Shown here: one piece after another, positions 1 to 11,880 of the stretch | Layout of the letters: every line of letters starts with the position of its first letter | How positions within the stretch are numbered: the stretch's first letter is position 1 | Source: an uncultured Anaerolineales bacterium | GTDB lineage: Bacteria; Chloroflexota; Anaerolineae; B4-G1; SLSP01 | NCBI GenBank assembly: GCA_964612845.1 | Contig: CAZTEO010000001.1 | Location: 2,933-66,932, forward strand | Reading direction: 5' to 3' | DNA length: 64,000 bases | The notes under the pieces: model-generated | Seen by the model: the letters and a program-made list of their open reading frames with translations, nothing else | Databases searched by the model: none | Told to the model about the DNA's origin: nothing | Position numbers and translations under genes: made by a program

Positions 1-787
1 TACGATAGCGAATCCATGTCTCGCCCTGGGCCTCGATCGGTGCAAACTGAGAAATCAGGGCGCCCACGCCGTCCTGCGAAGGCTTCACAAATCGCGCTTC
101 CATCAGCGGCTCACCCAGGAGCTCTGACTTTAGATCAGAAACCGCACCGGCAGCCACGATCTGTCCTTGACGAATGATCAAGATGCGATCAGCCAACTCT
201 TCTGCCTCGGGCAAATTATGCGTGCAGATCATAATGGCCCGGTGCCCATCGCGGAGCTGGAGGATCATATCCCTGACCAGCCGAGCGCTTTCTGGGTCCA
301 TCGCGGATGTTGGCTCATCCAAAAGCAGCACAGATGGGTCATGAAGTAACGTCCGCATCAGCGTCATCTTCTGCGCCATACCCTTTGAGTATTCACCGAG
401 GCGGCGATCCAAGGCAAATGACATGCGAAAACGATCTGCCAGCATAGCGATACGCTTTTGGCGCTCTGATGCCGGAATGTCGCGCAGCTCTCCGAAGAAG
501 TCCAGGTACTCCCGGCCCGTCATGCGCGTATACAGACCGGGAGATTCGGTCAACATACCGACTCGCTGGCGCACCTTTCTGGCGTCCGAAACCACATTGT
601 AGCCAGCGACCCGTGCACTCCCCACGGTCGGCTTGAGGATTGCCGCAAGCATCCGCACCGTCGTCGTTTTGCCTGCGCCGTTAGGACCCAACAAGGCCAC
701 GACTTCACCTTCACCCACAGTAAAATCAATCTGATCCACAGCGACCAATGCTTCAAAACGCTTCGTGATCCCCTGTGCCTCAATCAT
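1..787 (-). CDS. ABC transporter ATP-binding protein (3' end runs off the window start)
   Basis: Hand translation of the reverse strand from ATG 787..785 gives MIEAQGITKRFEALVAVDQIDFTVGEGEVVALLGPNGAGKTTT (Walker A), YSKGMAQK (signature-like), LLLDEPTSAMD (Walker B) and ICTHNL (H-loop). It is absent from the ORF track because no stop lies inside the window. The listed 550..783 ORF is an out-of-frame shadow. Confidence 0.85.
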   Translation of the reverse strand, partial: MIEAQGITKRFEALVAVDQIDFTVGEGEVVALLGPNGAGKTTTVRMLAAILKPTVGSARVAGYNVVSDARKVRQRVGMLTESPGLYTRMTGREYLDFFGELRDIPASERQKRIAMLADRFRMSFALDRRLGEYSKGMAQKMTLMRTLLHDPSVLLLDEPTSAMDPESARLVRDMILQLRDGHRAIMICTHNLPEAEELADRILIIRQGQIVAAGAVSDLKSELLGEPLMEARFVKPSQDGVGALISQFAPIEAQGETWIRYR

Positions 788-948
788 ACAAACACTCCTC
801 TAACTCTATTCTCTCCAATTATACCACAGGTTCTCAGCCCTATATCGAAACTTCAATCTGTCGCCTGAACAGTTCCGTCCCATGCAAAACGTGCGCTTCA
901 GTAACAAGCGCACGTCTGGTCAACCCTTCTTGTGGATATCTGAAGTGC

Positions 949-1314
949 TTACGTCACATCCATCAAGTCACAGACACTACTCAAATGTTCCAACTCTTGT
1001 TCCAGCAGGTAGTTTAGCAAGGTCCGCAACCCGATGAGGGCACCGAGCAGCATAATATCGGTCCAAGAAGGCGATAACGCTGTCTTTAAGATGTCAGCGG
1101 CAACCTGGAACTCCAGGGCCATGACCATGCTTTGTCCAAGCGATAGACGGAGTGTAGGAATATCGACAGCTTCTGGCCTGAAGAAATTAACTACATAACG
1201 AATGGCAGTACGGGCTACGGATAAGACGATCACCATGACGCCGGCTGCCTCCACACCCATAATAATATAATCTAAGATATGTCCAAAAACGGTCTCCATG
1301 ATTCCCAATCCCAT
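949..1314 (-). CDS. small integral membrane protein, DUF1622-like
   Basis: 121 aa with hydrophobic segments and a LEFQVAADILKT...LIGLRTLLNYLLEQE pattern that I recall as typical of DUF1622. No enzymatic motif. Confidence 0.55.
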   Translation of the reverse strand: MGLGIMETVFGHILDYIIMGVEAAGVMVIVLSVARTAIRYVVNFFRPEAVDIPTLRLSLGQSMVMALEFQVAADILKTALSPSWTDIMLLGALIGLRTLLNYLLEQELEHLSSVCDLMDVT

Positions 1315-1426
1315 CGACAGCCGTCCCTATACGTAGGCCTCCACGATAATCCGATGATCACGTAAGGCGAGCGCCTCCAGCAATATTGACAAGACCCAAA
1401 AGGTCGTCCAAACACATAACACCTAG

Positions 1427-1457
1427 GGTGCCACTGGAGGATGTCTCCAGTGGCACC
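1427..1457 (-). terminator. perfect 13-bp hairpin 30 nt downstream of the ftsZ stop (candidate end of the dcw transcript)
   Basis: GGTGCCACTGGAG-gatgt-CTCCAGTGGCACC. On the minus strand it is followed by ctaggtgttatgtgttt, which is only a weak U-run. Confidence 0.4.
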
Positions 1458-1486
1458 GATATTATAGGTTAGAAATCAGAAAAATA

Positions 1487-2611
1487 CTATCGATTACGGC
1501 GCAAGAACGCAGGAATCTCGATATTTTCCTGATCCAGTGCACCGGGCACTGAGATATCACGGTGCTCCCTGCGACGCACCGGGGCTTGCGTCTGATGGTG
1601 CGAGGTCGCTTCCTGCTGGTCAAAGCCGGTGGCGATCACGGTGATGCGCACCTCCTCGTCCATCGTCTCGTCGACGACGGCGCCGAAGATGAGGTTCACA
1701 TCCTCGTGCGCTGTCTCACGGATCACAGACGCCGCCTCATTGACCTCGTAGAGCGTCATGTCATCGCCGCCGGTGATATTGAAGAGGATGCCCCGCGCGC
1801 CGTCAATGGTGATATCCAACAGACGGCTGGAAATGGCTTGCTGGGCTGCTTCAATGGCCCGATTCTCACCGTTGCCCCGCCCCACAGCCATAAGCGCCGC
1901 GCCACCTTCTTGCATGATGGTCTTCACATCGGCGAAGTCCAAGTTGATCAGGCCCGGCACGGTGATGACCTCGGTAATGCCCTGAATGCCCTGCCGCAGG
2001 ACATCGTCGGCGACGCTGAAAGCCTCTGTAAGACTCATTCGCTTTTCAGTGATCTCCAGCAGGCGATCGTTGGGAATCACAATCAAGGTATCCACCATCT
2101 CCTTGAGATTTTCGATGCCCTGGATCGCGGCTTTGGAGCGTCTGGACCCCTCAAAGGCGAAGGGACGTGTCACCACACCAATCGTGAGCGCCTTGATCTC
2201 CTCTTTGGCAATCCGAGCGATGACTGGTGCAGCGCCGGTCCCGGTCCCGCCGCCCATGCCCGCCGTCACGAAGACCATGTCAGCGCCCTGAAGCAGCTCG
2301 CGAATCTCGTCAGCCGACTCTTCTGCCGCTTTTTGGCCTTCTTCTGGATTTCCACCCGCGCCGAGTCCGCGTGTCACCCCGTCACCAAGGCGCAACCGGC
2401 GCGGCGCTTCGGACAACATCAGCGCTTGAGCATCGGTATTGACTGCGATGAACTCCACACCCTGCAGGCCTTCCGCAATCATGCGATTGACTGCGTTACT
2501 CCCGCCACCACCTACACCTACTACGCGAATCTGTGCAAAATTCTCTCCTACTGCACCCATCTCTGCACCTCCCCGATATGTGTTCTCTGCATTGATAAGT
2601 CCATGAACCAT
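1487..2611 (-). CDS. ftsZ: cell division protein FtsZ
   Basis: [17 protein letters not shown] and the tubulin signature [16 protein letters not shown]. Start set at ATG 2611 (AAGGAGAG lies 5 nt upstream). ATG 2560 (GGGGAGG upstream) is an equally plausible alternative. The first 66 nt of the listed ORF overlap ftsA. Confidence 0.95.
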
Positions 2612-2628
2612 GATTCTCTCCTTCTCCA

Positions 2629-3849
2629 TCATCCAGGCAATAACGTTCTTAACCAACCACCAATCTGTTTCCACCAAGTCTTACGTGGAGCTTTCCACCC
2701 CCCATGATCGATCCACAACGGCATCCACTGCGCCAGGCCCACAGCCACGGCTGAGGCTGGATTACTGACTTGATCGGTCAAGCCGACCAGATTCTTCGGC
2801 TCACCAATCTGTACGGGCAGCCGAAAGATTTCTTGGGCCAGCTGCTGGATGCCGGGTATCTGCGCCACGCCGCCACAAAGTACAACGCCAGCCGGCAGCA
2901 GCCCATCATAACCGGAACGCTTTATCTCCTGCTGGACACTTTCCAAGATCTCTTCCATACGCGCCTGGACGATTTCCGCCAACTTCCAACGCGGGACCAC
3001 CACCGGACTGTTCTCCCCATAGGGCGAGATGGTGAACTGTTCATCTTCCGCAACCTGAGCGCCCATCGCGTGACCGTGTTGCAGATTGATGCGTTCGGCA
3101 GCTTCAGGTGGAAGTCGCAGGCCAATGGCGACGTCGTTGGTCACGTAATCGCCACCCAAGGTCAACGAGCGTGTATACCAGACCGTACCTTCGATGAAAA
3201 TCGCGATATCCGTCGTCCCCTTACCAATATCGACTAGCACCACCCCCATATCTTTCTCCGTATCAGAAAGCACGGTATTACCAGCCGCGAGACTGGTCAA
3301 CACCAACTCGCTGATCTCAACACCGGCGCCCGTCACGCACTTGGTCAGATTCTGAAGCGCGGTCGCCGATCCCATCACCACATGCGCTTCCACCTCCAGC
3401 CGATAGCCGTGCATGCCCAAGGGATCTCGCACGCCTTCCTGACCGTCCACGGTATAGACCCTGGGAATGATGTGCAAGAGTTCCTGATTTTGAGGGAGCG
3501 CAATCGCACCCGCGGCCTCCAAGACCCGGTCGATATCGTCCGGCGTAATCCCCTGTTCGCGCCGCGATACACCGACAACGCCCTGGCTGTTCCGAGAGGC
3601 GATGTGCGCGCCACTCACGCCGACGAATGCCCGCTCAATCTGATAGCCAGAGGTCTGCTCCGCCTGTGCAACTGCGTCGCTGATGGCTGCAGTAGCCTCG
3701 GTGACATTGACGATGGCGCCTTTGTGCACACCGCGCGAGGGAACACGCCCGACTCCCACGATGCGCGTCTCGCCGGTCTCCGCGATCTCGCCAACCAGGA
3801 CTTGAATCTTGGCGCTACCAACATCGATACCTACAACAGATCGTTCCAT
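2629..3849 (-). CDS. ftsA: cell division protein FtsA
   Basis: Actin-like ATPase motifs ([37 protein letters not shown]). C-terminal amphipathic tail [13 protein letters not shown]. Lies between ftsQ and ftsZ. Confidence 0.93.
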
Positions 3850-3859
3850 CTTCCCCCCT

Positions 3860-4651
3860 CTACCAAGATTCCGTCAGCGAGTAGGTCACAGCATCAGGAA
3901 AGCGAACATCAATCGTCCGGGGACGGATACCGCGCGACTGGAGATCGCTCGCCAACGCCTCGTACATCCGCCAACGCCGTTCCATCTCCCAGCCTCGCCC
4001 AAACGCCACTTGCGTCCCTAGCGAGTCCGTCCAGACCAGACCGCGCTCCGCATGATAGATCAACTCTTCAGCAGGCAGTCCCAGCTCGTACAGGGCCTCC
4101 ACACCGTCCAGAATATCTTCAGGGATACGTTCCGACGCCGGCAACGGTCCCTGAAGCAGCGGTAAATCGTCAACAGAGTCCGCCACCGGAAACAGAATCC
4201 CTTCCGCATCAACACCGAAGCGCTGATCGGCCGTCTGCCAGAGCAATTGCGGTGCTCTTTCTTCGATAGTGATCAAGCACTCTGCCGGATAAAACGAACA
4301 ATCCACATCCGCCGCTGTCACAGCCGGGACGCTGTTGGCAACACGGCTGATGACCTGACGCGGACGAATCCAGAGACCGTGAAGCGTCAACACATCTGCG
4401 GTAAGCGCAACGTCCCGCGCCGTGTCCAGAGAGGCAGTCCCGGCAATCTTCAAGCGGCTCGCGTCAACATACCAGCGCGGATCGAGCCAGACCCACAAGA
4501 GGAGCCCGACTATGATCACCGGCAGACCCACCCATCGCCAGGGAATGTTGACGTGCCAACGACGTTTAGCACGGCGCGCGACCTGCGGTTGTGCACCTAA
4601 CAGCGCCGCCGTCCGATGGTATTGTCGCTTTGCCATCTCCCTATCCTCCAC
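3860..4651 (-). CDS. ftsQ: cell division protein FtsQ/DivIB-like (POTRA)
   Basis: Basic N-terminus, one TM (VGLPVIIVGLLLWVWL), then a POTRA-like region. Lies between ddl and ftsA. Confidence 0.75.
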   Translation of the reverse strand: MEDREMAKRQYHRTAALLGAQPQVARRAKRRWHVNIPWRWVGLPVIIVGLLLWVWLDPRWYVDASRLKIAGTASLDTARDVALTADVLTLHGLWIRPRQVISRVANSVPAVTAADVDCSFYPAECLITIEERAPQLLWQTADQRFGVDAEGILFPVADSVDDLPLLQGPLPASERIPEDILDGVEALYELGLPAEELIYHAERGLVWTDSLGTQVAFGRGWEMERRWRMYEALASDLQSRGIRPRTIDVRFPDAVTYSLTESW

Positions 4652-4682
4652 TCACTTCCACATTACGCCGTTATCAAGGCGT

Positions 4683-5816
4683 CTATGAAGCCCGGAACAC
4701 CCGTTCTGAACGTGCATTCTCCACGTGTCGTTCCAGAGCCAAATCAATCAACCAGCTCAATAAACGCTCATAAGGAACACCCGTAGCATCCCACAGCTTC
4801 GGATACATGCTGATCGAGGTGAAGCCCGGTATCGTGTTGATCTCGTTGAGATAGAGCTCGCCGGTCTCGCCGCTCAGCAGAAAGTCAACACGCGCCATAC
4901 CCGCACAGTCGATGGCTTTATAGGCTTGGATTGCCATCTTTCGTATCTGTGCAGTCAGTTCCTCACTCAAGGGCGCCGGTATCAGCAACTCCGAAGCATC
5001 TTCGCCCGTATCCAGATACTTGGCCTCGTAGCTGTAAAAATCGCGGCTGGGAATAATCTCCCCCGGCACAGAAGCCGATGGGGCGTCGTTCCCCAACACA
5101 CTCACCTCGATCTCGCGGGCCGCCGGTACAGCCTCTTCGACCAGCAAACGGCGGTCGTAGCGCGCGGCTTCATGCATACCGGCGCGCAACTCTTCCTGAT
5201 TAGTACACCTGCTGATGCCCACACTGGAACCCAAGTTCGCGGGTTTAGTAAAGAGTGGATAAGTCAATTCCGTCTCGATCGTGCGCAAGACGCTTTCCGG
5301 CTCCCGCTCCCACCAACGGCGGCTGCAATGCACATAGGGGAGGATCGGAAGCCCGACGTCATCACAAACGTGCTTGAAGATAATCTTATCCATGGCAACT
5401 GCTGACGCGACCACACCGGCGCCTACGTAGGCGACATCTGCCAGCTCTAACAGCCCCTGCACCGTGCCATCTTCGCCGAAAGTGCCGTGCAACACAGGAA
5501 AGACTACGTCCACGCGGGAGAGCATTGAAAGCTGCCCCGCCCGTTCATTTTGATGAGAGTGAATCTGGCTGAGACCACTATACGTAGGATCAGGCAGAAT
5601 GGCAGCCGGACGCGTTTCAGTAAAAGACTCGTCTTCCAACGCCCGCATCGGGTCCGTGCCCACGATCCAAGCCCCCTCCCGCGTAATACCCACCGGGATA
5701 ATCTCGAAGCGATCAGGGTCTAACGCACCTATGACCGAACGCGCCGAGACCAAACTGACCTCATGCTCGCCGGAACGCCCGCCAAACAATACCGCCACTT
5801 TAAGCTTATCTGACAT
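4683..5816 (-). CDS. ddl: D-alanine--D-alanine ligase
   Basis: KVAVLFGGRSGEHEVSLVSA N-terminus and an ATP-grasp C-terminus (YLNEINTIPGFT). Start moved to ATG 5816 (GAGGGGGG 5 nt upstream); the listed ORF starts at GTG 5822. Confidence 0.93.
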   Translation of the reverse strand: MSDKLKVAVLFGGRSGEHEVSLVSARSVIGALDPDRFEIIPVGITREGAWIVGTDPMRALEDESFTETRPAAILPDPTYSGLSQIHSHQNERAGQLSMLSRVDVVFPVLHGTFGEDGTVQGLLELADVAYVGAGVVASAVAMDKIIFKHVCDDVGLPILPYVHCSRRWWEREPESVLRTIETELTYPLFTKPANLGSSVGISRCTNQEELRAGMHEAARYDRRLLVEEAVPAAREIEVSVLGNDAPSASVPGEIIPSRDFYSYEAKYLDTGEDASELLIPAPLSEELTAQIRKMAIQAYKAIDCAGMARVDFLLSGETGELYLNEINTIPGFTSISMYPKLWDATGVPYERLLSWLIDLALERHVENARSERVFRAS

Positions 5817-5885
5817 CCACACCCCCCTCAGTATCGGATACTGCGTTTCTGACGTATACCGCCCGCTTCATGCTAGGCAGAATAA

Positions 5886-6791
5886 TCATGCAATCAGCTC
5901 AATCTCCGGCTCAAGCCACACGCCGAACTTGCGCTCGACCTCAGCCTGGACCCGCTGAATCAACGTCATGTAATCTTCTGCTGTCCCATCCGCTTCATTG
6001 ACAAAGAAATTCGCGTGGTGGGATGAAACCACGACGCCTCCCACACGCATGCCCTTCAGACCTGCCGCTTCAATAAGCCGACCCGCGTAATCTCCCGCTG
6101 GGTTCTTGAAGGTAGAGCCCAAGGTCCGACCCGGCGGTTGGGTATGGTGACGGCGCTCTGTATACTCCTGAGCCTTGGCCTGCAAATGCGCAGGATCTCT
6201 GGGGCGCAGTTGGAACGTCGCCCGTAGTACCACCCACGCCTCCCCAGCACCCTTTAGACGGCTGCATCGATAGCGAAAGTCAAACCAGTCTGGCCCAATG
6301 GTATGAATGTCATCATCTGGACCAAGCAAATCTGCAGAGAGCAAGGCTGTCGATATCTCACCACCAAAAGCACCGGCGTTGTTGATCACAGCGCCGCCCA
6401 CGGTGCCGGGCAAGCCAACCGCCCACGTCAGACCTCCCCAACCGCGCGCCACAGCCGCTCGCGCCACTTGAACCATCACAGCACCAGATTCCGCGCAAAT
6501 ACGGTAATTATCGGCAAACTGGACCTCGCGCGCGTGATTAAGGATCACCACGCCATGCAGACCCCGATCCGAGACCAGGCAGTTAGAAAGTCCACCAAAT
6601 ACTTTGTAAGGCAATCGTAACGCACGGCTTTCAATCACAGCCCGCTGAATATCGGAGGCGGAGCGAGCGACGACTAAGACATCGGCAGGGCCGCCCACGC
6701 CCGCAGCGGAGTACTGCGCCAGCGCGGCATCACGCTGGGCGATGTCGCCCAAGCGCTCCACCAGTTGAGCCAGCCGTGTCTCGTAATCCAT
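5886..6791 (-). CDS. murB: UDP-N-acetylenolpyruvoylglucosamine reductase
   Basis: FAD-binding PCMH-type N-terminus (FGGLSNCLV) and a C-terminal GSTFKNP motif. The ATG at 6791 overlaps the TGA of the upstream small ORF (TGATG). Confidence 0.92.
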   Translation of the reverse strand: MDYETRLAQLVERLGDIAQRDAALAQYSAAGVGGPADVLVVARSASDIQRAVIESRALRLPYKVFGGLSNCLVSDRGLHGVVILNHAREVQFADNYRICAESGAVMVQVARAAVARGWGGLTWAVGLPGTVGGAVINNAGAFGGEISTALLSADLLGPDDDIHTIGPDWFDFRYRCSRLKGAGEAWVVLRATFQLRPRDPAHLQAKAQEYTERRHHTQPPGRTLGSTFKNPAGDYAGRLIEAAGLKGMRVGGVVVSSHHANFFVNEADGTAEDYMTLIQRVQAEVERKFGVWLEPEIELIA

Positions 6792-6946
6792 CAACTTTGC
6801 TTGCGTTTCGCATCCTTTGAGCGCATCTCGCGTTCGACCAGCTCCATCTTGAACTCCATGGTCGCCGAGCGATATGCCCGCTTCTTGGCCCGTTTCCGTC
6901 CTTTAACGCCGGTGGCACGTTTGAACAATTTCGCCAGTCGTGTCAT
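6791..6946 (-). CDS. unlisted 51-aa highly basic small protein, translationally coupled murC -> ORF -> murB
   Basis: Hand translation: MTRLAKLFKRATGVKGRKRAKKRAYRSATMEFKMELVEREMRSKDAKRKQS*. GAGGAG lies 8 nt upstream. Its ATG overlaps the murC stop (ATGA) and its TGA overlaps the murB ATG (TGATG). It is below the 60-aa cutoff of the ORF track. Confidence 0.5.
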   Translation of the reverse strand: MTRLAKLFKRATGVKGRKRAKKRAYRSATMEFKMELVEREMRSKDAKRKQS

Positions 6947-8349
6947 GGGGATGTCTCCTCAGCTTGTAAAGCGTCTAACAGCTGCTCGCCGACTACGTAC
7001 TCGGTGCCAGCCCCCATCAGCAGAATCACGTCGCCCGATTCGACCTCCGCCAGGAGCTGCGCCACCGCATCATCCAGCGAGGCTGCGGCGCTGACGTTGG
7101 GATGCTCCAGTGCAGCCACCAGACCCTGCTGATCAATGCTCCCATCATCTATCTCACGCGCTGCGTAAATCGGCAGGACGAGCACACGGTCCGCGCCTTG
7201 GAAAGCGCAGAGGAAATCGTCCCACAACGCCTTGATCCGGCTAAACGTGTGAGGCTGCCAGACGGCGAGCAGTCGCCGCTCAGGATAACGCTGCTGGGCG
7301 GCCTGCAACAACGCGCGAATCTGGGTGGGATGGTGCGCATAATCGTCGATAACGGTGACGCCCTGCACTTCGCCCAACACCTCAAAGCGCCGCGCCGTAC
7401 CGGAGAAATGCTCCAATGCAGCCTTAGCCGTCTCCAGAGAGACTCCACATTCACCCACCGCAACTGCTAAGGCCGCCAGGGCATTCTCCGCGTTATGATC
7501 GCCGGGAATAGATAAGTTTATCTCGCCCAGCCGCACATTTTCCCGCAGCACATCGAAGGTAACGCCGCCCCGTGCATTAGGTCGCACGTCTATGGCACGC
7601 CAGGCCAATCCCTTGCCAGGGCGTAGACCGTACAAGACCAGGTGACCGCCGTTGGCGTGGTAAGATGCCGCCACGGCGTGGGCGACTTCGTCATCGTTAC
7701 AGGCGACCAACGTGCCATCGTCACGGATCTGATCCACAAAATCCCCAAAAGCCAGACGCAGGAACCGAGGGCTGGGGAAACAGTCCGGGTGATCGTACTC
7801 AATGTTGGTCACGACAGCAATGTAGGGTTCTAGCGCCAGAAATGTGTTCTGGTACTCATCGGCTTCAATGACGAAGTAGGATCCTGCACCGGCCTGGGCA
7901 TTCGTCCCCAAGCTCTCCACAACCCCACCCACGATGTACGTCGGATCGTGCCCCGCCTCCAGCAGGATGGACGTGATCATACCGGTGACCGTGGTTTTAC
8001 CGTGGGCCCCCGCCACCGCGATAACGTCGTGTTCGGCGGTCAGCAGCGGCAGGAACTCGGGACGCCGCATCACAGGAATATCCTGCTGCCCTGCGGCAAC
8101 CAGCTCCACGTTGTCATCGGGCACCGCGGACGAAGCCAACACCAGATCGGCGCCAGCGACGTTTGCCGCCACATGTCCGATGCAAACCGGAATGCCCTCA
8201 GCGCGCAGATCCGCCACCAGCCGGCCCAGCTTCTGATCGGAGCCGCGCACATCGACACCACGCCCCTTCAACACGCGCGCGATAGCCGACATTCCAGCCC
8301 CGCCGATCCCAACGATATACACTTGCGTCAATTCTGTTAAATTTTTCAC
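6943..8349 (-). CDS. murC: UDP-N-acetylmuramate--L-alanine ligase
   Basis: VYIVGIGGAGMSAIA and the Mur-ligase P-loop GAHGKTTVTGM. Start set at GTG 8349 (VKNLTELTQ...), which gives the usual short N-terminus. The listed ORF start at 8478 would overlap the upstream gene by 119 nt. Confidence 0.93.
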   Translation of the reverse strand: MKNLTELTQVYIVGIGGAGMSAIARVLKGRGVDVRGSDQKLGRLVADLRAEGIPVCIGHVAANVAGADLVLASSAVPDDNVELVAAGQQDIPVMRRPEFLPLLTAEHDVIAVAGAHGKTTVTGMITSILLEAGHDPTYIVGGVVESLGTNAQAGAGSYFVIEADEYQNTFLALEPYIAVVTNIEYDHPDCFPSPRFLRLAFGDFVDQIRDDGTLVACNDDEVAHAVAASYHANGGHLVLYGLRPGKGLAWRAIDVRPNARGGVTFDVLRENVRLGEINLSIPGDHNAENALAALAVAVGECGVSLETAKAALEHFSGTARRFEVLGEVQGVTVIDDYAHHPTQIRALLQAAQQRYPERRLLAVWQPHTFSRIKALWDDFLCAFQGADRVLVLPIYAAREIDDGSIDQQGLVAALEHPNVSAAASLDDAVAQLLAEVESGDVILLMGAGTEYVVGEQLLDALQAEETSP

Positions 8350-8359
8350 GTCCTTGCCT

Positions 8360-9034
8360 TCACAATCCAATAGCTCGCAACAAACCACTCCAGGTCCAAC
8401 TACAGTTCTGACGATGAGATATCGATACCAGCATGATCTCCTTGCCACCCACACTGATCTGCCTCGTCTGCTCTGCACGAGATTTGGAATGGTTTACCGG
8501 AACCGCTATCCCTATAATTTTATGGTTGATTATTCCTTCACATACTGCATCCAAGAGTTCCTGTAAGCATCCATGAATTTGATCCTCTTCTTCGTTCTCC
8601 TGTTTACAAAGCATCTGCATTCCTTGTTCTAGTTGCTCAAATTTGTCATCTACTTGATCCCGATTTACCAAAGTATCTCGCAACTCAAGGAAGACTAAAC
8701 AGCAATCCCCATCGAACCAGCCCATAACCAGGTAATCCGACTTACGTCCTTCCCACCGAGCATCCACCAATGAAATCTTGTCAGCGAAACGGTCGAACTC
8801 ACATATACGTAGAGGCATAGTATCTGCTTCTAACGTCAGCCAATAATAATGCGTTGGCTCACCACCCGGTAATTTTTTAGTTCCTTCATACAACAGACGT
8901 GATTTTTCGATAGCCACCCGACTACAACAATCCATTAATGCAGTAGCTTCTACAGGACAATCTATTCTCTCTGGTTGCTGGGGTAGACTCTCTCCCTGAC
9001 AACGGCTTTCGGGGATATTATTGCGTCTGGGCAT
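8360..9034 (-). CDS. hypothetical Cys-rich protein, partner of the upstream ATPase (no family recognised)
   Basis: 224 aa with 11 Cys. GGGAG lies 9 nt upstream of the ATG, which is 6 nt after the ATPase stop. Its stop is 10 nt before the murC GTG. Low GC. Acidic clusters: WLTLEADT...WFDGDCC and SDYLVMGW...LVFLELRD. Confidence 0.6.
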   Translation of the reverse strand: MPRRNNIPESRCQGESLPQQPERIDCPVEATALMDCCSRVAIEKSRLLYEGTKKLPGGEPTHYYWLTLEADTMPLRICEFDRFADKISLVDARWEGRKSDYLVMGWFDGDCCLVFLELRDTLVNRDQVDDKFEQLEQGMQMLCKQENEEEDQIHGCLQELLDAVCEGIINHKIIGIAVPVNHSKSRAEQTRQISVGGKEIMLVSISHRQNCSWTWSGLLRAIGL

Positions 9035-9040
9035 ACAATT

Positions 9041-10246
9041 TCACTCCCACAATGTGCCGTAGGTAGCAAGCCGATTGTACTCTGTCTCCAAATCCCCCAG
9101 CACTTCACCGAGACGCGATTCATCTATCTCTCCTGAGTCAAGTTTGATATTCTGCAACCTGCCTTCGTGAAGCATATAAGCTACAACCTTTTCCGGGTTC
9201 AACTGCACCTCAGCTTCAGGAACACGCTCTAATCCCTCTTTTTCTGCCAACTTCTTATATGCTAATATAAGATTATTCAAAGCATACATTACCGTTAGCG
9301 AGTGCGTAGTGATCGTGACGTAGAAACCTTGATTCACAAGATAGGCCAGAATCTTGACCATTGCCACTTGAGCATTAGGATGCAAATGGATCTCCGGTTC
9401 CTCCACATGTAGAAAGAAGGGTAGTTGAATCCGTCCATCACGAAGCCACGAAAACAGAACTTCTCCCAATAAAACCAAGGGCCAGTTCGCTTTCTGTCCC
9501 GAAGACGCCATGTCGATATCAACTAATTTCTCTTCGTGCTCACCTTGGAAAATCCACTTCCAGCGATCTCCCGCGCGCGCAACTTCGCCCCCCAGTTCAG
9601 GCCAAATATGATGATGAATCCAGGCACCTTCTAGCGTACCAGGCACACCATTCTCCCAACGCTGGCTAAAGACGTCACCGGCACTTTCAATGGCATCTGC
9701 AAAAAGTCGCAATGTGCTGGGAACTGGCAACAAGTCCCAAACGGAAGGGCCACGTGCATGGGAATAAAGCATCCGTTCAGCAGGCACAAAGAGCGCGCGT
9801 CCTGGCGGATAGATCGATTCTCCCTGGCGGATATCCGTGACAGTTTCACACAAGGATTTATATGCATTCACACGACGATTTCTAGTCTCCATGCTGAATC
9901 CTAGGGTTTTCCGTCCGCTTTCCACACCTTGATACTTCACTGCGGTGGAGGGATCTGCAAAAACAGCAAACGCCCGATCCCGACTACGCAGCTCATCCAA
10001 TATCCAACGGACTAGGTCTTTTTCCGAAACGGTTCGATCTCTCGCTTGAGCAAATGCATCATAATAGCGCACCAGATACAGGAGATCGCGGAAGAAGTAC
10101 AAGACCTGGCTAAGCAAGGATTTACCCGTGCCTTGACCACCAATCAAAACCGTTAACGGACGTATTTCAATTCTATTAGTCTCTTGCAACGGCCCCAATT
10201 TCCCACGTTTAATCTGAATTGTCTCAAACCGTTTCGATTTCATCAT
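9041..10246 (-). CDS. ABC/SMC-like AAA_21/AAA_15-type ATPase (OLD/AriA/PtuA-class ATPase fold)
   Basis: Walker A LIGGQGTGKSLL, signature-like MASSGQKANWPL, Walker B/D-loop FFLHVEEPEIHLHP and H-loop ITTHS. About 200 aa are inserted between Walker A and the signature. GAGGT overlaps the stop of the upstream gene. Low GC. Confidence 0.8.
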   Translation of the reverse strand: MMKSKRFETIQIKRGKLGPLQETNRIEIRPLTVLIGGQGTGKSLLSQVLYFFRDLLYLVRYYDAFAQARDRTVSEKDLVRWILDELRSRDRAFAVFADPSTAVKYQGVESGRKTLGFSMETRNRRVNAYKSLCETVTDIRQGESIYPPGRALFVPAERMLYSHARGPSVWDLLPVPSTLRLFADAIESAGDVFSQRWENGVPGTLEGAWIHHHIWPELGGEVARAGDRWKWIFQGEHEEKLVDIDMASSGQKANWPLVLLGEVLFSWLRDGRIQLPFFLHVEEPEIHLHPNAQVAMVKILAYLVNQGFYVTITTHSLTVMYALNNLILAYKKLAEKEGLERVPEAEVQLNPEKVVAYMLHEGRLQNIKLDSGEIDESRLGEVLGDLETEYNRLATYGTLWE

Positions 10247-10251
10247 TTACC

Positions 10252-10782
10252 TCACACAAAGACAATCAGGACAAAGGCGAAGGCCACCGCCACGCCAACA
10301 AAGAGAGGCGGACCAGCCAGCCATTCGGTTATCAAATTCTGCGAAAAGGTCAATGGGATGCTCTCCCCTGGCGCTGTGATTTTCCAGATGTTATAGCCAA
10401 GCTGTTCCAAAAATCCCCAGACCATGCCTACCACCAGACCGCCATTCAGAACACCCAGGAAAAAGCCCAATAGCGTATCCTGAAACTTATCCTTACGTGC
10501 TTTACCTCCCACGGCTGCGGAGATAACAGGCGTGGCATAACCAAAGATGACAATGGCGACGAATAGAATCATGCGCACATAAAACCAGGTCTCGGCTTCG
10601 TTCGCGGCCAGATTTTGCAGGGCCGAATCGACGCCCGGCACATACGCCCACAAAACAAACTCAATGAATCGCGCCAAGATAACGGCGAACGCGACCAAAA
10701 GCTCCTTCGCCCAGCCGCGAAGCGCCCCAATCAGCCCAAAAAGTAAGACCAGCCCAATGAAGACATTCTCCAAAGGTACCAT
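10252..10782 (-). CDS. CvpA-family (colicin V production-like) membrane protein
   Basis: 176 aa with 4-5 TM. LIGALRGWAKELLVAFAVILA and DTLLGFFLGVLNGGLVVG resemble E. coli CvpA (LIRGFVREALSL, DRVLGVCFGALRGVLIV). Its ATG directly abuts the murG stop. Confidence 0.6.
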   Translation of the reverse strand: MVPLENVFIGLVLLFGLIGALRGWAKELLVAFAVILARFIEFVLWAYVPGVDSALQNLAANEAETWFYVRMILFVAIVIFGYATPVISAAVGGKARKDKFQDTLLGFFLGVLNGGLVVGMVWGFLEQLGYNIWKITAPGESIPLTFSQNLITEWLAGPPLFVGVAVAFAFVLIVFV

Positions 10783-11880
10783 CTATCTGACCTCCCCCAA
10801 GCTGCACAGCAGCTCCGCCAACGTCTCACTTGCATCTGGACGGGCAAGGGCGTGTGCCGCTTTCGCCATGGCGCGTAGACGCTCTATATTCGCCAGCAGC
10901 CCATGAACGGTCGGAACCAACCGCGCCTCTAACTCTGCGTCTTCGATCACAATGGCAGCGCCCCTATCTGATAGCCACTGCGCATTGACTTTCTGGTAGC
11001 GCCAAGCGTAAGGATAGGGCACCAGGACAGACGGCAGACCGAAATACGGAAACTCGCCCAGGATCGACGCGCCCGCACGTGAGACCACCAGGTCCGCTGC
11101 TGCCAGTGCTGCTCCCATCTCTTCGTGTAAATAGGGATACACATGGTAATGGACACGCTGGGTCTCGGGAAGCGCGCCATGCGCCTCCACAATCTCATCC
11201 CAGTCCAGCTGTCCGCTGACGTGAATGACCTCGATCTCCTTGAGAAGCGCCGGAAGATTCGCCAGCACAGCGCGATTGATGGAACGGGCGCCCCGGCTGC
11301 CGCCAAAGACCAGGATCACGGGCGCCGATGCCGGTAGATCCAACGCTCGTCGGCCCGAGGTCCGATCCCAGCGCATGATCTCATCGCGCAAGGGATACCC
11401 GGTGACCTCCACCTTTTCATCCGGCAGAAATTCGCGCGACGCCTCCACTGTGACGCCGACACGCGCCGCCATCCGGGCGACGACTTTGACCGAGAGCGCC
11501 GGCTCGACGTCTGGCAAGAAGACCAAGATCGGGACGCCGCGCCGCCAGGCCGCCAAGGCCACCGGTACGCTGACGTAACCGCCGGTCGTCAACAGCGCAT
11601 CCGGCTGCTCGCGTTCTAACGCGCGCCCAGCTACCCCAATCCCGCGAAGCAGGCGGGGGACATTACGCGCCATCCGCCCCAGTCCGACGCCATGCACGCC
11701 ACCGGCCGGGATATCCACAAAAGGCAAACTCGCCCGTTCGACCAACGCGCGTTCCATGCCGCTCTCTCCGCCGACCCAGGTCAGCGCGATGCCGGGTTCA
11801 ATGTCCCGTAGTGCCTGCGCGACGGCGAGACCCGGATAGACGTGCCCACCAGTCCCGCCACCCACGATCCAGAAATGCAT
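10783..11880 (-). CDS. murG: undecaprenyldiphospho-muramoylpentapeptide beta-N-acetylglucosaminyltransferase
   Basis: MHFWIVGGGTGGHVYPGLAVA N-terminus, VFGGSRGA, GT28 layout. Confidence 0.93.
   Translation of the reverse strand: MHFWIVGGGTGGHVYPGLAVAQALRDIEPGIALTWVGGESGMERALVERASLPFVDIPAGGVHGVGLGRMARNVPRLLRGIGVAGRALEREQPDALLTTGGYVSVPVALAAWRRGVPILVFLPDVEPALSVKVVARMAARVGVTVEASREFLPDEKVEVTGYPLRDEIMRWDRTSGRRALDLPASAPVILVFGGSRGARSINRAVLANLPALLKEIEVIHVSGQLDWDEIVEAHGALPETQRVHYHVYPYLHEEMGAALAAADLVVSRAGASILGEFPYFGLPSVLVPYPYAWRYQKVNAQWLSDRGAAIVIEDAELEARLVPTVHGLLANIERLRAMAKAAHALARPDASETLAELLCSLGEVR

Follow-up and report, generated by a model that had tools for sequence, protein, structure and literature searches.

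Two pairs of an ABC ATPase and a PD-(D/E)xK nuclease, HEC-02 and PD-T4-4, are validated defences (bioRxiv 10.1101/2024.01.29.577857; 10.1101/2025.07.10.664194). In HEC-02, described by Payne et al., the ABC ATPase HEC-02A is combined with the NERD-type PD-(D/E)xK nuclease HEC-02B, and defence requires both genes (bioRxiv 10.1101/2024.01.29.577857). PD-T4-4 of E. coli is directed against T4 and consists of a P-loop/ABC NTPase and a PD-(D/E)XK nuclease (Vassallo et al. 2022, PMC9519451), the two proteins of which form a complex (Ragucci et al., bioRxiv 10.1101/2025.07.10.664194). PARIS follows a scaffold-and-release logic (PMC11464382), and in Menshen the AAA_15 (OLD-ABC) ATPase NsnB has a C-terminal helical tail that is predicted to clamp the highly polymorphic effector NsnC (PMC12065111). 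The locus described here lies in a 64,000 nucleotide (nt) stretch of contig CAZTEO010000001.1 from an uncultured Anaerolineales bacterium (the window), in which a gene on the minus strand at 8360..9034 encodes P0001, a protein of 224 amino acids (aa), directly downstream of a gene for an ABC-type ATPase. P0001 is a protein of PD-(D/E)xK fold and probably (at a probability of about 0.6) a metal-dependent nuclease effector, belonging to a two-gene anti-phage module controlled by the ATPase.

The open reading frame (ORF) of P0001 comprises 224 codons and a stop codon, with the ATG at 9034-9032. A GGGAG ribosome-binding site, read from the sequence (9044..9048, minus strand), is found 9 nt ahead of this ATG, at the end of the ATPase frame and before its stop codon (9043-9041), which itself is 6 nt ahead of the ATG. 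The 401 aa ATPase gene (9041..10246, minus strand) is translationally coupled to the partner gene, and on the other side the GTG start of murC (8349) lies 10 nt past the P0001 stop codon. An initial annotation of this protein, made by reading the sequence, had reported 224 residues, 11 cysteines and two acidic motifs, all of which were recovered by script: cysteines at 12, 26, 36, 37, 78, 111, 112, 143, 156, 165 and 211, the motifs YYWLTLEADT (63-72) and VMGWFDGD (103-110), and the residues E69, D100, D108, D110 and E117-L-R119 at the positions given. It had seen no HNH, Walker or helix-turn-helix motif, in agreement with the searches of Pfam, NCBIfam, PADLOC and PDB sequences, where P0001 has no match. 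PDB sequence searches with P0001, the family profile and the ATPase returned nothing meaningful.

The term orphan, also used for the protein, holds for its annotation only, given the absence of a database match, and about 28 clusters of homologs exist. A word-indexed search found one relative, P0002, which is 79% identical and occupies the same position in the sister genome (G003; L001:8001-8675), and a scan for P0001-related loci with the single protein found only this sister copy. An exhaustive HMMER scan of 1.84 billion representatives recovered 28 homolog clusters at E ≤0.001, none of them annotated. All are 106-251 aa long, which shows that the P0001 ORF has not been truncated from some larger known protein, a case that the initial annotation had raised against its own proposal. 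Most of the homologs come from metagenomes, and the record titles name metagenome-assembled genomes of Anaerolineae, Anaerolineales and Thermoflexia. The ratio of nonsynonymous to synonymous substitution rates (dN/dS) relative to the sister copy is 0.19 for the partner gene, 0.13 for the ATPase gene and 0.115 for murC. The sister copy, the low dN/dS and the homolog clusters establish that the P0001 gene is real.

Two catalytic readings of P0001, sharing part of the sequence, had been left undecided. One was TOPRIM-like, with a Glu (E69) followed by D108-x-D110, and would make the cassette a miniature PARIS; the other was PD-(D/E)xK-like, formed by D100 and E117-L-R119. Conservation of these six residues in an alignment of 22 family sequences (A1, the basis of all conservation counts below) separates the two and favours PD-(D/E)xK. 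E117 and R119 are invariant, together with C37, Y64, K131 and Q134 (22/22), and D100 is present in 21 of the 22 sequences. Other positions kept in at least 90% of the alignment are C12, P18, D71, C78, G105, L118, G175 and W215, and position 81 is Asp or Glu in every member. The residues of the TOPRIM reading are poorly conserved (E69 in 10/22, D108 in 1/22 and D110 in 7/22).

A structural model of P0001 places the conserved residues where a PD-(D/E)xK active site would have them. AlphaFold2 (AF2), run from a 32-sequence alignment, gave a predicted local distance difference test score (pLDDT) of 86.1 and a predicted template modelling score (pTM) of 0.85, compared with a pLDDT of 37 from the single sequence, and only the alignment-based model was used in structural searches. 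The model has the alpha-beta-beta-beta-alpha-beta core of the superfamily. Helix 80-87 bears the acidic position 81; D100 stands directly before strand 101-107 and opens it, as the conserved Asp of the second core strand does in this superfamily (Asn in P0002 excepted); a hairpin then leads into strand 110-122, carrying E117 and R119; and helix 125-143 bears K131 and Q134. As modelled, the arrangement of D100, E117, R119, K131 and Q134 is the canonical PD-(D/E)xK placement, with E117 invariant in the third-strand (D/E)-x-K motif, R119 instead of Lys, and an invariant Lys (K131) on the next helix. From conservation, the secondary structure of the model and the profile alignment to P0034 described below, the codons of the proposed active-site core, D100 to Q134, span 8633..8737 on the minus strand.

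Comparison of the model with 48,161 chains, using an aligner independent of Foldseek, returned a top 50 made up almost entirely of PD-(D/E)xK nucleases. The best matches were Cdn1 (Z 6.3, root-mean-square deviation 3.7 over 122 residues), Can2 (6.1) and McrC (6.0; model residues 6-224), and the list also includes Bse634I, SgrAI, Cfr10I, FokI, BspD6I, SduA (Z 4.8), Bax1, NucS, Card1, Cas4, HamA, NucC and Hjc. Foldseek against the PDB gave weak matches, none of them at E ≤0.001, the first being an integrative YdjA–YdiS model, ahead of McrC, DdmD and HamA; re-examination of the Foldseek candidates led to the same PD-(D/E)xK picture. No TOPRIM structure was among the top structural matches, and none of the 22 members matches the AriB profile or any other TOPRIM profile. 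That P0001 is a TOPRIM-like nuclease is accordingly the least credible of the readings weighed here, with hardly any probability left to it, although the ATPase does resemble AriA (PADLOC, 3.9e-17) and its relatives align with nearly the full length of the AriA profile. The candidate was rejected because its residues are not conserved and the structural matches are to PD-(D/E)xK nucleases. The label of a PARIS-like pair was thus apt for the ATPase but not for the effector.

Profile searches with the family members point weakly in the same direction. Five of the 22 match PDC-M47B of PADLOC (three profiles) over the D...ExK core, with E-values of 1.6e-4 to 3e-2, and three match the SduA profile over the catalytic core (best 5.4e-6). 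PDC-M29B and HamA each match one member weakly, in the case of HamA downstream of the catalytic core. A search of 301 Chloroflexota genomes with one PDC-M47B profile (PDLC04665) gave two weak matches.

A different partner found in the same position in a genome of the same genus (G007) provides a link to the canonical motif. In that genome, an ATPase 56% identical to that of the window is followed by the 191 aa protein P0034 (L026:3384-3956), which was not among the matches in the protein search of that genome. P0034 and its sole relative P0035, likewise encoded between cvpA and murC, share the invariant, canonical motif KRPD...VAFVEVKS, represented in P0034 by PD64...E82-V-K84. Profile alignment of A1 with P0034 by hhalign (E 4e-5, 70% probability, 142 columns) pairs D100 with D64, E117 with E82, R119 with K84 and K131 with K95. 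Since R119 aligns with K84, the E-x-R of the P0001 family is the positional equivalent of E-x-K. The proposal of D100...E117-L-R119 therefore gains from conservation, strand placement, structural matches and the alignment to P0034 alike.

The ATPase gene upstream of P0001 encodes an AAA_15/AAA_21, OLD-ABC-like protein (Pfam AAA_15, 1.4e-14; AAA_21, 5.4e-9). Its best PADLOC match is PD-T4-4_A (1.1e-18), followed by AriA, NsnB (9.6e-17), PDC-M56A, PDC-M47A (8e-15), PDC-M29A and HEC-02A (2.2e-11). Walker A (GxQGxGKS), the signature (MASSGQ), Walker B (LHxEEPE) and the H-loop (TTHS) are invariant in the ATPase alignment, as is the Q-loop region, which is also intact. Of nine partners examined, eight are encoded directly downstream of an AAA_15/AAA_21 ATPase of 400-435 aa, and their loci represent at least five unrelated contexts; the contig of the ninth (L013) retains only the last ~110 residues of an ATPase, at the contig edge. 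As an ABC ATPase gene directly precedes the partner at every locus that extends far enough upstream, the partner most likely supplies the nuclease of a two-gene module. With pairing this strict, its earlier designation as the presumptive effector is plausible.

The C-terminal end of the ATPase appears to belong with the partner. Metagenomic contig L009 and genome G007 are 90-92% identical at the DNA level in three stretches: cvpA, the first ~1000 nt of the ATPase gene, and murC. They are unrelated over the last ~230 nt of the latter ATPase gene and over the entire partner gene, the partner being of the R type in L009 (P0003) and of the K type in G007 (P0034). The ATPase tail and the partner gene have been exchanged here as one unit. 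The breakpoint is sharp and lies just past the H-loop/YALNNL (L009:1326-2269 compared with L026:3148-4006), with a DNA identity of 90-98% upstream and at random level downstream. Across eight pairs compared, the identity of the ATPase tail tracks the partner rather than the ATPase core. Thus, L009 and G007 are 93% identical in the core, 27% in the tail and 14% in the partner, whereas the corresponding values are 43%, 56% and 49% for G007 and L027, and 63%, 87% and 54% for L011 and L014. This correlation and the joint exchange suggest that the tail (about residues 326-401; 9044..9271, minus strand) is the docking element of the partner, as judged from one clear recombination event and a correlation among related sequences.

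Beyond the window, the pair is found in company that would suit a defence role. In L011 and L012 it is flanked by a DpdE/DrmD-like SNF2 helicase (7.5e-273) on one side and a DrmMI-like methyltransferase (4.6e-67) on the other, and in L014 it adjoins a PDC-S60-like protein with a PNP_UDP domain. The L011 locus (1-11593), from a distant relative, and L012 are DISARM/Dpd-like clusters in which the gene order is a DruE-like DEAD/MZB helicase, the SNF2 helicase, the ATPase, the partner and the methyltransferase, which is 1646 aa long. PDC systems are themselves candidates, recognised by their location within BREX, DISARM and type I restriction-modification loci.

In the proposed mechanism, one operon supplies both the partner and the ABC-type ATPase encoded ahead of it, and the ~75-residue C-terminal tail of the ATPase holds the partner. 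The partner would be the effector of this two-gene anti-phage module, a nuclease dependent on metal. In its active site, an acidic side chain at position 81 would come from the first core helix, and D100 would stand where the second core strand begins. The third strand would contribute E117-x-R119, Arg taking the position that Lys has in the canonical motif, and the helix after it the invariant K131 and Q134. The ATPase might sense an infection cue and, on binding or hydrolysing ATP, set the nuclease free or switch it on, as analogy to PARIS, Septu, Menshen, HEC-02 and PD-T4-4 would suggest. We infer, for this pair, the nuclease activity and its substrate, the physical complex, the trigger and the function in defence.

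A number of results weigh against a nuclease effector of a defence module. The structural Z-scores are all middling (6.3 at most), a range that possibly reflects only a common arrangement, and the matches are chain-level scores. With values of this kind, the argument leans on how uniformly the list is composed and on how it agrees with the motif. P0001 itself matches no PADLOC model, the hhalign probability with P0034 is just 70%, and an hhalign comparison of A1 with four Chloroflexota DUF4263 (Shedu-type) domains was not significant (0.6% probability), with only the PD and E motifs in register. No homolog was found by tblastn in phage and plasmid collections, and the copy in the window is located in the dcw operon of cell-wall and division genes, not in a defence island. 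Position 119 is Arg, not Lys, in all 22 members, the closest homolog (P0002) has Asn at the proposed catalytic position 100, and no cleavage of DNA by purified PD-T4-4 was seen in vitro under the conditions tried (bioRxiv 10.1101/2025.07.10.664194).

The last three of these observations would also fit a catalytically inactive PD-(D/E)xK fold, with P0001 serving the ATPase as a nucleic-acid-binding sensor or adaptor. There is a precedent in Menshen, where NsnA uses inactive domains of restriction endonuclease fold as DNA binders (PMC12065111). Such a role is unlikely, though to be taken seriously: the invariance of E117, R119, K131 and Q134, with D100, D71 and the acidic position 81 nearly so, is the pattern typical of an active site, the pair holds no other candidate effector, and the sister partners P0034 and P0035 are fully canonical (PD...EVK). 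P0002 retains E117, R119, K131 and Q134.

Four cysteines are near-invariant in the family (C12 in 20/22, C37 in 22/22, C78 in 21/22 and C111 in 18/22), and C26 and C36 occur together in 10 of the 12 sequences having either. This pattern suggests a structural metal site. It could also be taken to mean that P0001 functions chiefly as a metal or iron-sulfur protein, in redox chemistry or regulation, its acidic motif being incidental. That is highly improbable, since C12, C37, C78 and C111 show no CxxC spacing, no metal-binding family is matched, and two divergent members have lost cysteines yet keep D100, E117, R119, K131 and Q134 (P0028 lacks C111, and P0029 lacks both C111 and C78). The iron-sulfur nucleases Cas4 and AddB bind a 4Fe-4S cluster through one N-terminal Cys and a C-terminal CX2CX5C. 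The cysteines of P0001 do not follow this defining pattern, being without CxxC, but the examples show that a nuclease can accommodate a structural metal site, making the metal reading more likely an addition to a nuclease than an alternative to it.

With P0001 taken as a nuclease effector, the pair can be set against the described systems. HEC-02 shares with it the combination of an ABC-type ATPase (HEC-02A) and a small protein of the PD-(D/E)xK superfamily, as well as the occurrence within other defence systems. None of the 22 members matches HEC-02B or Pfam NERD, however, and the family differs in having E-x-R where HEC-02B has (D/E/Q)xK, and in its Cys-rich N-terminal part. The ATPase match to PD-T4-4_A, the best in PADLOC, covers only residues 278-368, and no member matches PD-T4-4_B at E-values up to 1. 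PDC-M47 is a multi-gene PADLOC candidate predicted by guilt-by-embedding, for which a literature search found no paper; the ATPase matches PDC-M47A in part, five family members match PDC-M47B, and one relative of the pair is embedded in a DISARM/Dpd-like cluster, but P0001 and 17 of the 22 members overall are without a PDC-M47B match.

PARIS has an ATPase of similar size, AriA, to which the match is partial, and an adjacent small nuclease gene (putative in the present case), and its scaffold-and-release logic offers a plausible model for this pair. The effector of PARIS is of the DUF4435/TOPRIM type instead of PD-(D/E)xK, and P0001 and 21 relatives have no AriB match. The resemblance to Menshen is in the ATPase, by way of the NsnB match, and in the tail and partner being exchanged together. 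The cassette lacks an NsnA (ParB-DUF262) gene, the partner lacks an inPIN domain, and Pfam DUF3696 is not found in the ATPase tail at E ≤0.01. Shedu SduA (DUF4263) belongs to the same superfamily, as reflected in the three profile matches and the structural match, but it is a single gene without an ATPase, and the DUF4263 profiles fail to align significantly with the family. Taken together, the P0001 family most likely represents a new sequence family and a motif variant of the known ABC-ATPase/PD-(D/E)xK defence pairs.

In the window the cassette sits between cvpA and murC of the dcw operon, and this slot is filled in at least four lineages (G000, G003, G007/L009 and L027). The cassette is co-oriented with its neighbours and tightly packed, with spacers of 6-10 nt. 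Scans of 8000-11000 for promoters, terminators and repeats gave no signal above chance, and neither flanking repeats nor scars of mobile elements were seen. The CvpA-like gene is itself a native part of the operon in all genomes of the genus that were examined. The recurrent use of the slot, the short spacers and the lack of an internal promoter or terminator above chance might all suggest a housekeeping role for the pair in cell-wall synthesis or division. This is very unlikely, as the contents of the slot differ among relatives. In two genomes of the same genus (G005 and G006), the order is murG-cvpA-murC, with cvpA abutting murC, and the cassette was not found; in G002, only the first 50 codons of the ATPase gene are left (L024:3879-4031); G003 has the full ATPase-partner pair; and G007 has the ATPase with P0034. 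The pair, not found in two genomes and reduced to a remnant in a third, is therefore dispensable. Elsewhere, it occurs in unrelated contexts, defence clusters included.

Base composition also sets the cassette apart from the operon. Its G+C content is 0.45-0.49 in three lineages, compared with 0.60-0.67 in the flanking murG and murC. Synonymous divergence (dS) between G000 and G003 is 0.61-0.71 in the cassette and 1.15-1.87, about double, in the flanking genes. The two contrasts hint at repeated exchange of the cassette between relatives, which may have occurred by recombination through the conserved flanks.

A bolder view would make the family a new class of PD-(D/E)xK nuclease, defined by the invariant E-x-R, the helix-borne Lys and Gln and a four-Cys metal or iron-sulfur site. 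It would be plugged into an exchangeable C-terminal socket of the ATPase that moves with the effector, and it would be settled in the essential dcw operon, where co-transcription with cell-wall and division genes could perhaps tie its activation to envelope or division stress. As a whole, this picture is speculative and improbable.

As a predicted activity, the P0001 family would add an unannotated effector family to the growing set of immune modules built from an ABC ATPase and a nuclease. It also provides a test case for the replacement of Lys by Arg, the Lys of PD-(D/E)xK being systematically Arg in this family and retained where the slot is taken by the sister lineage. As a natural experiment on the interface, the clean breakpoint that follows the ATPase H-loop points to the last ~75 residues as an effector-specific docking module. 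The stable presence of a defence-like cassette in the dcw operon is informative about how such modules may persist without the features of mobile elements.

A further small ORF is found on the other side of murC. Between murC and murB, ORFs of 47-52 aa are predicted in the sister genome (L001:10086-10244) and in the more distant L027 (6968-7111), and they match a 51 aa ORF of the window at 6791-6946.

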